A DNA stretch of 64,000 nucleotides from Chrysomallon squamiferum (taxonomy: Eukaryota; Animalia; Mollusca), in assembly GCA_012295275.1 (NCBI GenBank), contig CM022677.1, forward strand, positions 25,668,001 through 25,732,000. Direction: 5' to 3'. The notes below the pieces were generated by a model, which saw only the letters and a program-made list of their open reading frames with translations, was not told where the DNA came from and searched no databases. A program made the position numbers and the translations under genes. The number at the start of each line of letters is the position of its first letter. The first letter of the stretch is position 1. Below are positions 38,646-63,173 of this stretch, one piece after another.

Positions 38646-39647
38646 CTTTCTCCTGAACGTTTAGTTCATTGGTCACTTTCTTTCCCAGTTTACACCTCCG
38701 ACTTACTCATATCTTCTTCTTCGCATTTGTTACCAAGTGAGTGAAAATCCTCATTAATCTCCTGTAGTCTTAGCACATGTGCAGTTATGATCCCTTAGTT
38801 GGGACTTCTTTTACAGGATGTAGACGCAACCTGGAGTGAAACAAATCCTTACCATTATCTCTTTGAAAGCTCAAAGGAAACGATACGCGAGCAGCAGGCG
38901 ACATGGCTGCAGGAAAATTCATAATTGTGTCCCACAATAGCAGAAAGTGGTGCTTTCGAATCGACGTAAAGTTCCCCTGGAAATTCAAATTTAATATTAA
39001 TACACCTTCTGACACTGCATCCAACATAAATTCAACATAGCATTGATAACATGTTACAAATCTAAGACAATCAAGGAAAGGAAAAGGAAATATTTTTCCT
39101 CTGTAACGTCAATAGCACTTCCATTACTCTAAGGGAGCAATTATATGACCTAGTAAAACAAATGCCAGTCCATTAAAGAGGACACACAGAGAGTTCCTTG
39201 TATCTTAGCTGTGCTTTTTAACAAATTTTTTAACAACAAAATATAACGTGCGTGTAAAAAGGGACTGTTTCACAAATCGTGCTTTATTTCTTTTTTAAAC
39301 ATTTTATTTCGATCTTTATTGTACCATCCTAACGTTCAGGAATATTGTTAATTTTTCGTCCAACTTGACATCTCCAACTCATGTCCTCCCCTCTGTCACA
39401 TTTGGTGCATTGTCAAAACTGTAGGTCCGTATCTTATCAATGCTCTTCACATTTACAGTGGAGTCCATTCTTTGCTGACACTTCTTTTACACGATGTCGA
39501 ACTGAACAAACTGATGTAAACTCTTTTTCCAGATTTTTTTGTTTGGAAAACCATTGGCAATGATACGTGAGACGACATTGCAGAGAAACACGTAATTGCT
39601 TCCTATAACTGCCGTGCTTGGACCCATTAATCGTGAGAGGGAATATT
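38646..39647 (-). pseudogene. Two frameshifted Ig-like exons (38646-38976 and ~39319-39647); pseudo-exons or low-quality contig end
   Basis: 39319-39647 is a near copy of exon 61857-62183 with many 1-2 bp indels and a damaged donor. 38646-38976 shows Ig fragments (FPLSFQRD..., NELNVQEKG) split across frames. Confidence 0.6.
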
Positions 39648-60600: not shown

Positions 60601-63173
60601 TGCTTTCGTGACAAACTATATGTTTTAAAGGAAACCGTTTAGGTTGTTATCTGAATTTAAATTAACTATAAATACAAAAATCAATCCGACCTTAAGAAAT
60701 TAACAAATATTGTCAACTAATCATGTGTTCATTACCCAGTCTGCAAAGTATTTGAAAAATAGTTTTCCAAACATAAAAAAGAAATTCTGTAAAATATATC
60801 GTGCCATGCATACATAATCTTACACGTACTACCAAACAAGAAATAAATAAATAAAAAAAAATAAAATAAAAAGGAATAATCATATTAAAAATAATAATAA
60901 TAATAAACAAAACAGAAATATCAATAAAAACACCAATAAAACAAATTACAAATATTTTCTTTTAAATATATCTATTTAGGCTTTAACACGTTTTAATTGC
61001 TGACTAAATATTACATGGCGTTCTAACAGAAGATTATTTGCATATCACCTGCTTCCTTCAAAAGAGTTACGTTACTCAGATGCCTTCCCATTTGACATCT
61101 CCACTTAGTAATATCGTTTTCCGTTGTATTCACTATGGTTAACCTGTAAAGTAGAATGTCATTAGTGTCTGAAGTGACATTTTCACACGCACAATGATAA
61201 CCAGACACTACCACCTTTTCTTTACAAGATTTAGAAACTTCACAAACTGAAGCAAATCCTTTGTCTAAATATTTTTGAAAAACCAACGGCAATGAGGTGA
61301 TCGAATAAGGAGACACAGAACCAGTCAATGTAGACTTCTCTCCTAGAACAGCACCAACTCCTGCGTTTATCTTAAGAGATACATCTGAAAACATATAGAG
61401 AATGTCAATAATTATATCGAGAATGAGAAAAAGAAAGCTGTAAAACAGATATACACCATGTGACTTTTGTAAAAACGTATTGAAATCAAACTCTATTTTG
61501 AAATTATTGATTGATTAATTGATTAATTATAATTATTTCATCATTGAAAATGTATTTGATAATGCTTTTATTTTTTGTATTTAAGTGTATTCATATAAAT
61601 TATCAATTTAATACTATTCTTTAGGGGTTTTCCTTTAGAAAAGGTACTACATCCCATGAAATGAGATCCCATTACATAAAACAAACTCCGGGAAAAAAAG
61701 CTAAAAACAAGTTGTAAACAAACACCATACAGAGGCGCTACAGGTACGGAAATGTTTTTTTTTTTGTTTGTTTCTTAATTTTATTTCTTTATTTTTTATT
61801 TTTTATTTTTTTCAACAATGACTAATATTGTGCATGATGAGATTCCTCCATCTTACTTGTACCATCCTTAACATTCAGAATACTGGTTAATTTTCGTCCA
61901 ACTCGACATCTCCAACTCATGTCCTCCTCTGTCACATTTGGTATTGTCAAACTGTAGGTCCGTATCTTATCAATGCTCTTCTCACATTTACAGTGGAGTC
62001 CATTCTTTGCTGACACTTCTTTACACGATGTCGGAACTGAACAAACTGATGTAAACTGTTTTCCAGATTTTCTTTGGAAAACCATTGGCAATCGTACGTG
62101 AGAGGGAGACGCCACATTGCAGAGAAACACGTAATTGCTTCCTATAACTGCCGTGCTTGACCCATTAATCGTGAGGGAATATTCTGTGAAAATGCAAATT
62201 TATTTTAGTTTCTAAATACTTAATGTAACCGTTTCTTTCTTCTTCCTGCATTTTAATGAAACCGATTAAAAGGAAAGACGGAAACAGAAATATATATATA
62301 TATATCAAAGAAGCAAACAAACACTATTTTCTCTTAACTGTCTAACGGCATCTAGAAAAGAATGAAAATTCTTCTTCAAGTTGTTTCTTTCGTGAAAAAC
62401 TGGATGCCTTAAAAGGAAACTGTTTAGGTTGTTATGTGAACTTAAATTGACCAAGCACAGAAAGCTCAATTCGACACTTCGAAATTATCAAATATTGTTA
62501 ACTAATATTTTGATGATTGCCCAGACTGCCGAATATTTGAGAAATAGTTTTTCAAACACAGAAACAGTTGAACATAAAAAAAATTCAGTAACACCTACTG
62601 CCGCATCAGTATATTGTTTTACACGTATTACCAAACAATAAATAAATAAATAAAATAAATTAGAATAAAAAAGAATAACAAGAATGAATAAATCAATAAA
62701 GCAGAAATACAAATAAAAACAACAAAAATAAATTAGAATTTATAATATATTTTGTTAAATGTATCAACGCTTTTATTCGTTTTAATTGTTGTGTAAATAT
62801 TGCACGACGTTTTAACAGAAGCTTATTTGCGTTTCACCTGTTTCCTTCAAAAGTGTTATGTTGCTCAGCTGGCTTCCCATTTTACATCTCCACTTATTAA
62901 TATCTTTCTCCGTTGTATTCACTGTTGTCAAGGTGTAAATTCGAGTGTCATTAGTGTCTGAAGTGACATTTTCACACGCACAATGATAACCAGACACTAC
63001 CACCTTTTCTTTACAAGATTTAGAAACTTCACAAACTGAAGCAAATCCTTTGTCTAAATATCTTTGAAAAACCAACGGCAATGAGGTGATCGAATACGGA
63101 GACACAGAACCAGTCAATGTAGTCTTCGTTCCTATAACAGCACCATCTCCTGCGTTTATCTTAAGAGATACTT
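38646..63173 (-). CDS. Large modular extracellular protein (6-Cys Ig-like domains, TSP1 repeats, unknown 6-Cys domain); partial at both ends
   Basis: More than 35 GT-AG exons, nearly all phase 1-1. Order 5' to 3': Ig x4, TSP1 x4, X-domain, TSP1, [X-domain, TSP1, 2 linkers, Ig x3, linker] x2, X-domain, TSP1, then 2 damaged Ig exons. No signal peptide, TM segment or terminal exon lies in the window. More than one gene cannot be excluded. Confidence 0.75.
40878..41949 (-). CDS. X-domain exon pair (41787-41949, 41240-41388) and TSP1 exon (40878-41069), downstream copy
   Basis: Intact copies of exons 53435-53597, 52888-53036 and 52527-52718. Confidence 0.8.
43464..43790 (-). CDS. 6-Cys Ig-like exon (intact copy)
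   Basis: 327 nt, phase 1-1; KQYVLFC...VFQQ...SVCEVTQSC...YCRCE...YSLTIPKV...YRC. Confidence 0.85.
44087..44990 (-). CDS. Two Ig-like exons (44664-44990, 44087-44414) carrying homopolymer frameshifts
   Basis: Copies of 50480-50806 and 49903-50229 with single-base indels in A/T runs. Confidence 0.65.
46680..47752 (-). CDS. X-domain exon pair (47590-47752, 47043-47191) and TSP1 exon (46680-46872, +1 frameshift), middle copy
   Basis: Near-identical to the other two copies. The TSP1 exon is 193 nt instead of 192 nt. Confidence 0.75.
49274..50806 (-). CDS. Three 6-Cys Ig-like exons (50480-50806, 49903-50229, 49274-49606)
   Basis: The first two are intact 327-nt exons (e.g. KYVLFC...SVCKVLKSC...HCKCE...[18 protein letters not shown]). 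The third has a 6-bp insertion near 49560 that creates TAA. Confidence 0.8.
51278..52109 (-). CDS. Linker micro-exons 52077-52109 ([11 protein letters not shown]) and 51278-51304 (GSKVPGKGK)
   Basis: 33 and 27 nt, AG/GT-flanked, phase 1-1. Copies at 46230-46262 and 45428-45454. A related 36-nt exon [12 protein letters not shown] is at 48771-48806 and 42991-43026. Confidence 0.7.
52527..53597 (-). CDS. X-domain exon pair (53435-53597, 52888-53036) and TSP1 exon (52527-52718), upstream copy
   Basis: [14 protein letters not shown]...[17 protein letters not shown]...ETC...LVCSA, then [22 protein letters not shown]...IRTC...C...C...C. Confidence 0.85.
54794..54985 (-). CDS. TSP1 exon
   Basis: 192 nt, phase 1-1; [21 protein letters not shown]...TRSC...LCLG...KCYSKDACP. 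Confidence 0.85.
55551..56005 (-). CDS. X-domain exon pair (55837-56005, 55551-55699), divergent paralog
   Basis: [14 protein letters not shown]...[17 protein letters not shown]...PYC...RQTCFG, with phases 1-2-1. Confidence 0.8.
57557..59178 (-). CDS. Four TSP1 exons (59014-59178, 58635-58820, 58109-58300, 57557-57766)
   Basis: WGQW...C...RAC; WSGW...CSVTCG...RTC; DGGWSSW...CSVTCG...[16 protein letters not shown]...CSVSCG...RRDCDSP. All are phase 1-1. Confidence 0.9.
59540..63173 (-). CDS. Four 6-Cys Ig-like exons (62838-63173, 61857-62183, 61049-61384, 59540-59866)
   Basis: 336/327/336/327 nt, phase 1-1, open frames, with the shared motif P-x-VFQ...SVC-x-V-x-x-SC...HC-x-CE...Y-x-LT...D...WRC. 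Confidence 0.88.

Follow-up and report, generated by a model that had tools for sequence, protein, structure and literature searches.

Does the long run of Ig and TSP1 exons on the minus strand of this 64,000-nucleotide stretch of Chrysomallon squamiferum DNA (the window) form one gene, and if so, what does it encode and how much of its length is genuine? Reading from 63173 to 38646 there are 12 Ig modules, eight TSP1 modules, four two-exon six-cysteine modules (U) and eight candidate micro-exons. The first-pass annotation had listed 12 Ig exons, eight TSP1 exons and four two-exon six-cysteine domains on this single strand, and all are recovered; its linker micro-exons are also present, but as eight candidates rather than six, two of which have weak donors (51655-51620 and 45808-45770). 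Sixteen of the 24 domain modules are distinct and the remaining eight are near-identical copies. Open modules and micro-exons have AG/GT borders and are phase 1 at both ends, with U having an additional internal phase-2 intron. The earlier statement that every module is phase 1-1 holds for 18 of the 24 domain modules and all eight micro-exons, but six modules are broken as assembled. Because the phase pattern was partly a criterion in the search for exons, the RNA joints are the independent test.

The RNA comparison uses assembled contigs only and covers 56410-59440, or 3 kb of the 24.5 kb. All four visible joints (T1-T2, T2-T3, T3-T4 and T4-U1a) fall at the predicted bases in contigs from runs X1 and X2, with GT-AG borders and in phase 1. 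With these four exact and 18 modules open and 1-1, the locus is a class 1-1 exon-shuffled mosaic. The previous single-gene view stands for T1-T4 and the first U exon, which are spliced together, but its link from TSP1 to Ig is one of length only: the contigs continue beyond T1 on its upstream side for 357 and 330 nt, where the 327-nt Ig4 exon (59540..59866) is predicted, and the Ig4-T1 joint is read from that length. The RNA probably includes Ig exons as well, since X1 contains 0.36 of the sampled words from 54700-63300, more than the 0.12-0.14 of 31-mers that TSP1 and U exons make up there; all exons together make up 0.26-0.30. Run X3 has no contigs over the stretch compared and is uninformative. 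Alternative splicing, raised earlier as a possibility, is seen as an alternative last exon (56933..57259, minus strand) spliced to T4 in one X1 contig, but there is no cassette skipping among the exons tested. This exon has a stop after three codons, generating a short form with Ig4 and four TSP1 repeats, 695 aa counted from Ig1. It is minor (X1 contig depth 2.2 versus 54), with a 16-nt loose end identical to the T4 end.

As assembled, the spliced exons read through 1,295 aa to a stop at residue 1296 of a possible 2,332, and a giant size for the protein is unproven. Neither a start or signal exon of the long form (63174-64000 included) nor its last exon was found. A signal-peptide-like ATG frame at ~63.9 kb on the minus strand was rejected, as there is a stop inside it.

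TSP1 repeats are recognized by WxxW, CxxS/TC, a basic-x-Cys strand and six cysteines, and all six distinct repeats have this set. Pfam TSP_1 detects five of the six at E values of 0.0018-0.22, all below its cut-off. T1 (59014..59178), spliced in both X1 and X2, is TSP1-like (WxxW, CxxSC, six Cys) and has no Pfam match at E<=1. T2 (58635..58820; E 0.14), T3 (58109..58300; TSP_1 E 0.0018, below the curated cut-off) and T4 (57557..57766) all have Pfam matches and are spliced in RNA, and T5 (54794..54985) is predicted as an exon and has a Pfam match. T2 contains five variant sites between runs, four of them non-synonymous, which is as neutral change would give; the variants may come from a paralogue, and five sites are not taken as a sign of balancing selection.

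The Ig exons are identified by fold and profile and the TSP1 exons by motif, and both of these identities had been proposed correctly. Ig1 (62838..63173) is a cysteine-rich V-type exon recognized by alignment and an AF2 model, and Ig2 (61857..62183) by alignment and an ESM Atlas value of 0.95 to mollusc clusters, both being phase 1-1; Ig3 (61049..61384) aligns with 85% amino acid identity to Ig1. The Ig1 model (pLDDT 78, from an input alignment of seven rows, all from this window) is a V-type beta-sandwich with C, C' and C'' strands. Its best matches are VHH, CD8a, scFv and TCR V domains (Z 13-14.3, rmsd 2.1-2.6, ~100 residues; for VHH, VIA Z 14.3, rmsd 2.6 over 104 residues), with Foldseek giving E 2e-6 and TM 0.7, and a widened Ig profile (A4) matches antibody light chains at E 4e-5. 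The model supports a V-type rather than I-set assignment for the Ig domains of the window. No Pfam Ig family, V-set and I-set included, matches any of seven window Ig exons at E<=1. The F-strand cysteine is present in all seven aligned Ig exons and the B-strand cysteine in five, being replaced by Gly in Ig1 and Ig3, and the C-strand Trp41 is absent, with Phe in all seven and likewise in all eight aligned relatives. V-set folds without canonical residues, the C-strand Trp included, are described for Hydractinia Alr (PMC9546547).

The first-pass annotation described the cysteine-rich Ig domains as unrecognised, but the same six-cysteine V-type domain is found in abalone and limpet proteins. The window Ig domains belong to a cysteine-rich V-type group of molluscs with members in Haliotis, Patella, Gigantopelta and Crassostrea. 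These relatives are secreted or surface IgSF proteins: Haliotis models named 'hemicentin-like', 'CD22-like' and 'lachesin-like' (e.g. XP_046543344.1), Patella vulgata ADGRG6-like XP_055958759.1, the uncharacterised Gigantopelta aegis XP_041373256.1 and Crassostrea 'titin-like'. They share the V-type domain, the Phe in place of the C-strand Trp and extra cysteines, with the full C-x5/6-C...C-x-C set in seven (P0013, P0020, P0021, P0036, P0041, P0043 and P0044), and tandem Ig arrays are also found in those of Gigantopelta and Crassostrea. Unlike here, the partners of their Ig domains are I-set Ig, FN3, EGF-like, GAIN/7TM or membrane segments, and TSP_1 was seen by Pfam in none of the 23 proteins scanned. 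That scan took 18 of 31 matches, the other 13 being a short generic F-strand stretch only. Identity to Ig2 is 20-26% for the eight aligned relatives. One search was limited to proteins of 572-2,000 aa, and a word-index search of longer proteins with the seven-exon Ig alignment gave none among 7,994 candidates. The cysteine-rich V-type Ig is a mollusc-wide domain that Pfam misses.

Within this group the seven open, distinct window Ig domains cluster apart from all fetched relatives (SH-aLRT 96) in a quick tree of loosely trimmed domains with the five broken Ig exons left out, in agreement with the lineage-specific character proposed for the locus. Divergence among old Ig paralogues (dS 0.8-1.5, dN/dS 0.38-0.65) and between Ig1 and Ig3 (dS 0.085, dN/dS 0.92, near-neutral) likewise bears out its description as fast-evolving, and the values below 1 among the old paralogues indicate that the domains have been kept under constraint. 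These two sets, together with 5.8-kb units further downstream, account for the at least three duplication ages noted previously, although the youngest tier may be an assembly expansion.

The U domain is represented first by U1 (55551..56005; exons 56005-55837 and 55699-55551), with the T4-U1a joint in X1 and X2 and a cysteine spacing of 10-36-10-13-22 in a spliced domain of 105 aa. Its first half is predicted to be helical. Searches and folding used single-exon halves rather than the two-exon domain: a first-exon alignment search found none of 42 candidates at E<=1, the best ESM Atlas value with U1a was 0.78, giving no lead, and the fold search with the half-model reached a best Z of 4.4, which is uninformative and gives no sign of a new fold. 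Helical six-cysteine domains of the DUF19/CPG4 type presumably resemble U, but none of the four U halves has a Pfam match to these at E<=5. U appears to be an unclassified six-cysteine module missed by Pfam. Mainly alpha modules are a negligible fraction of class 1-1 modules (PMC8001218), and a helical U, if true, would be an unusual mobile module.

Downstream of T5 the locus is dominated by the 5.8-kb units, which are 97.5% identical with 0-2 substitutions per exon. Unit A (48771..53597), an exon prediction, contains U2 (53597-53435 and 53036-52888), T6 (52718-52527), micro-exons at 52109-52077, 51655-51620 (questionable), 51304-51278 and 48806-48771, Ig5 (50806-50480), Ig6 (50229-49903) and Ig7 (49606-49274), the last with a 6-nt insertion carrying an in-frame stop. 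Unit B (42991..47752) is near-identical and contains U3, T7 (46872-46680, +1 nt frameshift), micro-exons (the last at 43026-42991), Ig8 (44990-44664, +1/-1 nt frameshift), Ig9 (44414-44087, +1 nt frameshift) and an open Ig10 (43790-43464). Partial unit C (40878..41949) has U4 (41949-41787, 41388-41240) and T8 (41069-40878), all open. It is followed by an intronic junction region (39309..40165) in which a post-T6-type intron (40165-40115) runs into duplicated Ig2 sequence, intron and exon alike, and the breakpoint of the intronic rearrangement is visible at 40115-40165. The exon copy, Ig11 (39647-39319), differs from Ig2 by seven substitutions and 16 indels and has lost its donor. Ig12 (38646..38976) has several frameshifts, no close twin and a phase-1 donor, and lies ~45 nt from an assembly gap of 200 N (38402-38601). 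The six broken modules (Ig7, T7, Ig8, Ig9, Ig11 and Ig12) are thus all in the 3' half, and the breaks are mostly homopolymer or short-duplication indels.

Beyond the gap, also on the minus strand, are exons two and three of a C-type lectin domain (36488..37532; exons 37532-37439 and 36717-36488, the last matching Pfam Lectin_C at E 3.9e-4), and its first exon was not found. A C-type lectin gene cluster adjoins the locus and a fasciclin gene is present within the window.

We consider it somewhat probable that this is a spliced, exon-shuffled gastropod gene for a secreted beads-on-a-string V-type Ig/TSP1/six-cysteine protein, with a predicted multi-point grip on cell or microbial surfaces. Compatible with this, and itself not far short of an even chance, is a real but shorter gene, in which the assembly has gained one 5.8-kb unit through two haplotypes, or noisy long reads, being placed in tandem, so that the true 3' part amounts to ~1.3 units and the breaks reflect errors of sequencing. 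The 0-2 substitutions between exons of units A, B and C point this way, as does the absence of every A or B break from its twin, the breaks being homopolymer or short-duplication indels, and so does the excess of indels over substitutions in Ig11 beside the gap. Assembled contigs give divided testimony: the X1 contig reaches 889 nt past T4, beyond the ~570 nt at which identical co-expressed U copies should break a k=31 assembly, but the X2 contig stops 574 nt past T4, about where two expressed U copies would end it. On the other side, the U-TSP1 block has to be present at least twice, given that its upstream intron comes in two different versions and that differences specific to A occur at 53751-53340, and the A-B substitutions are clustered (five in 95 bp, 50815-50909) as in real divergence, although alleles would be so as well. 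The same breaks could instead mark 3' copies that are real, recent and decaying, or a second gene, with function confined to the 5' part from Ig1 to roughly Ig6. The restriction of all six broken modules to the 3' half, the RNA contigs compared, which do not cover the 3' copies, and the short form ending after T4 agree with this, but we think it improbable, as the breaks resemble read errors, no start or signal exon was seen between the blocks, and the length of the X1 contig extends into unit A if the exon order is correct.

At the far end, the gene might cross the gap into the lectin exons and encode a giant lectin-tipped Ig protein like the snail CREPs (VIgL). These exons are on the same strand ~1.1 kb from Ig12, the missing first lectin exon could sit in the gap, and the first lectin exons of neighboring genes start in phase 1, as an exon following the Ig12 donor would need to. 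With a lectin cluster directly alongside, however, a separate lectin gene in inverted orientation is the simpler reading, the gap is of unknown size, and FREP-type VIgLs combine one or two Ig domains with a coiled-coil region and lack TSP1 in the portion of the source used (PMC7588048); this extension is very improbable. Hardly less improbable is a cassette-variable snail recognition protein combining Ig arrays, TSP1 and a new, mainly helical six-cysteine mobile module, with unit number varying between individuals, short and long splice forms and possibly a lectin end as a giant VIgL. As to function, it is possible but doubtful that the protein serves not in recognition but as a structural glue or matrix component, in pedal mucus or in the matrix of shell or sclerites. 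The protein is basic with Lys-rich linkers, the window contains a fasciclin gene, limpet pedal mucus has large Cys-rich TSP1 proteins and Ig-domain proteins are detected in scaly-foot snail sclerites (PMC7333891; PMC11871041). Those of the limpet proteins considered here pair TSP1 with vWFD, EGF or cystine knot and not V-type Ig, and none of these partners is seen here (PMC7333891); the near-neutral Ig1/Ig3 divergence, moreover, fits changing binding faces.

Returning to the gene as a spliced mosaic, its product would most likely be secreted and act in multivalent recognition or adhesion. We infer secretion from the 24 N-glycosylation sites, 6.3% Cys and pI of 9.0 of the 1,295-aa open frame, and from the lack of a membrane segment within it (maximum 19-residue hydropathy 1.43), this frame including neither protein end. 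From general knowledge of the folds, variable faces for binding would come from the Ig arrays, and binding of glycans or matrix from the basic TSP1 repeats. Unequal recombination in the microsatellite-rich introns would add modules in frame, since all borders share phase 1. As a role, recognition at surfaces, in defence or in contact between host and microbes, is given close to an even chance and mucus or matrix adhesion a smaller one, and any other role is rather unlikely.

Ig and TSP1 occur in one extracellular chain in hemicentin, UNC5 and ADAMTS-like proteins. Those have I-set Ig domains, whereas the window Ig domains are V-type with four extra cysteines; vWA, G2F, EGF, ZU5, death, spacer and PLAC modules are absent among the exons found, both gene ends being missing, and sequence matches to these genes do not go beyond generic short I-set stretches. 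The gastropod VIgLs (FREP, CREP and GREP) are also extracellular with an N-terminal V-type Ig, and a lectin domain is nearby here, but they have one or two Ig domains versus 12 (at least eight distinct), of which four precede the TSP1 block and more follow it, plus TSP1 and U. Sponge aggregation factors, in whose genes phase 1 accounts for 154 of 155 introns and architectures differ by lineage (PMC5400394), and Hydractinia Alr are analogies only, having different domains and no homology found. The domain order had been reported as unrecognised, and nothing searched matches the Ig/TSP1/U order, nor does any title listed from the open-access literature describe it. The gene belongs to a known kind, the exon-shuffled IgSF/TSP1 mosaic, with a domain order that is new, and its manner of construction is ordinary for animals, whose extracellular proteins typically use modules of class 1-1 (PMC8001218).

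The cysteine-rich mollusc V-type Ig can now be given a profile of its own. If the repeats are an assembly error, the locus is one of many lineage-specific mollusc IgSF mosaics. The long form, if real, would record three ages of exon shuffling at a single locus, an intronic breakpoint being visible, and would be a candidate for host-surface recognition in gastropods.

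Enumeration of splice sites and alignment of copies place a mosaic gene on the minus strand (63173 down to 38646) of AT-rich, microsatellite-rich DNA of animal type (22–38% GC per 2 kb). Its order is Ig1–4, TSP1 exons T1–4, the two-exon six-Cys module U1, T5, two rounds of U, T, three micro-exons, three Ig and one micro-exon, then U, T, Ig11, Ig12 and a gap of 200 N (38402–38601). The 12 Ig, 8 TSP1 and 4 U modules agree with the first-pass annotation (at least 12, 8 and 4 on one strand), and its linker micro-exons are likewise present, open and in phase 1, with eight candidates in place of six. 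Its statement that every module has phase 1 at both ends holds for all candidate micro-exons and for 18 of the 24 domain modules; the remaining six are broken as assembled (Ig7, T7, Ig8, Ig9, Ig11 and Ig12). The observation is partly confirmed. Were every module open, coding length would reach ~7.0 kb (2,332 codons); the spliced frame is open over 1,295 aa. There are 16 distinct modules (8 Ig, 6 TSP1, 2 U).

None of seven window Ig exons matches a Pfam Ig family. An AF2 Ig model (pLDDT 78, 7 rows) matches antibody, CD8 and TCR V domains (Z 14.3), and a widened profile finds antibody light chains at the sequence level (E 4e-5). All seven carry four extra cysteines, the F-strand Cys and a Phe in place of the Trp. 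Ig1 (62838–63173, minus strand) and Ig3 (61049–61384, minus strand) retain the Cys of the F strand and have lost that of the B strand; each is left with five cysteines and may carry a free thiol. A full HMMER scan gave 31 matches; named full-domain relatives belong to Haliotis, Gigantopelta, Patella and Crassostrea, and the three top ESM Atlas clusters (0.95) consist mainly of molluscs. Judged by these relatives, the DNA is likely that of a gastropod. Because the same six-Cys pattern is present in abalone and limpet proteins, and four-Cys versions in Gigantopelta and Crassostrea arrays, this is a mollusc-wide Ig type missed by Pfam, and the Cys-rich Ig domains earlier described as unrecognised are known among molluscs. 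An ADGRG6-like adhesion GPCR of the limpet Patella vulgata (P0021/P0037) carries this six-Cys V-type Ig at the N-terminus, and the module is therefore mobile across receptor types. Pfam TSP_1 was found in none of 23 Ig relatives scanned (18 of the 31 HMMER matches and five more).

WxxW, CxxS/TC and six cysteines occur in all six distinct TSP1 repeats, five of which have weak Pfam support. Cysteines are spaced 10-36-10-13-22 in both U1 and U2, whose two halves are 30% and 16% identical, and three helices are predicted for the first half (pLDDT 70, 2 rows). Searched singly, the U halves gave no match in Pfam, word search, atlas or fold search; these being single-half searches, we leave U unclassified and claim no new domain.

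The 54.7–63.3 kb stretch is represented in three RNA runs from one study and one run of unrecorded kind, and contigs of four runs (X1–X4) were compared over 56410–59440. A 1,999-nt X1 contig joins T1–T4 (59178–57557) over three GT-AG introns with one letter different; two of these joints also appear in X2, and in both runs the first 30 nt of U1a, the first U1 exon, form a loose end past T4. In X4 a contig spans T2 together with its intron, still unspliced, and the joints therefore do not stem from the genome; X3 has no contigs here. A second X1 contig (depth 2.2 versus 54) links the T4 end to 57259, with a stop three codons past the join, giving an alternative last exon (57259–56933) seen in this single contig. 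The suggested alternative splicing is borne out to that extent, with no exon skipping among T1–T4 in the RNA contigs. Contigs extend 357 and 330 nt upstream of T1, which by length alone fits the 327-nt Ig4. The Ig exons are probably transcribed, since the sampled-word share in X1 is 0.36, where 0.12–0.14 is expected from TSP1 and U exons alone and 0.26–0.30 from all exons.

It is a substantial possibility, if short of probable, that the near-identical 5.8-kb repeats are an assembly expansion. Exons are nearly identical between copies; every break in units A (48771–53597) and B (42991–47752) is a homopolymer or short-duplication indel that the twin unit lacks; and Ig11, beside the gap, differs from Ig2 by 16 indels and 7 substitutions. 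If two identical U copies were expressed, contigs should by our estimate break ~570 nt beyond T4. On this measure the evidence is divided: the X1 contig continues for 889 nt, and the X2 contig ends at 574 nt, nearly at that point. Against an expansion, two different introns lie upstream of the U–TSP1 block, which therefore exists at least twice. The second full unit is in doubt.

Among old Ig pairs, dS is 0.8–1.5 and dN/dS 0.38–0.65; for Ig1/Ig3, dS is 0.085 and dN/dS 0.92 (from 25 changes). A quick tree separates the seven window Ig domains from the relatives included by a branch with SH-aLRT 96, as within-gene duplication would predict. At 40165–40115 (minus strand), in poor sequence, the intron found downstream of T6-type exons runs into duplicated Ig2 sequence, intron and exon, an intronic breakpoint of the sort required for exon shuffling. 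An insertion of ~630 bp in the post-T8 intron (40166–40797), which units A and B lack, may be a small mobile element; a 78-bp part matches 56881–56958, within the alternative last exon region, at 76%. T2 differs between runs at five sites, four of them non-synonymous; this variation is neutral-like and could be due to a paralogue.

Elsewhere in the window, a multi-exon minus-strand FAS1 gene (5051–19301) encodes several fasciclin domains (Pfam E 2e-7, 2e-6) and has a weak Ig-like exon at ~5.1–5.3 kb. At least two tandem plus-strand C-type lectin genes follow (26400–35710; Lectin_C E 0.0014 for the 28.7–29.0 kb exon), one of which has an exon resembling a signal peptide at about 26.4 kb. Between this cluster and the gap lies an inverted lectin domain without a first exon (36488–37532, minus strand). 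Long compound microsatellite arrays occupy 27863–28770 and 32261–32703, the former containing short repeated pieces of the adjoining lectin exon acceptor region.

Phase-1 modules are unsurprising here, since symmetric modules of this kind are described as the rule in animal extracellular mosaics (PMC8001218); in sponge aggregation factors, 154 of 155 introns are reported as phase 1 (PMC5400394), and non-canonical V-set folds are reported for Hydractinia Alr proteins (PMC9546547). The gene differs in Ig type from hemicentin, UNC5 and ADAMTSL, and in Ig count from gastropod VIgLs (PMC7588048). The open-access literature searched yielded no description of this architecture. The domain order is new within a known kind and includes one module left unclassified; the earlier interpretation of the gene is supported in part.

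With 24 sequons, pI 9.0 and no membrane segment over the 1,295-aa open frame, the product is most likely secreted, as a basic, glycosylated chain rich in disulfides. Judging from the general behaviour of these folds, the tandem V-type Ig domains would supply many weak binding sites and the TSP1 repeats would hold the chain to glycans or matrix. A glue or matrix protein is the alternative, backed by limpet mucus TSP1 proteins (as reported in PMC7333891) and sclerite Ig proteins (as reported in PMC11871041). Two grounds, neither of them strong, namely the fast divergence of the Ig faces and the adjoining C-type lectin cluster, lead us to favour recognition at the host surface over a role in glue or matrix.
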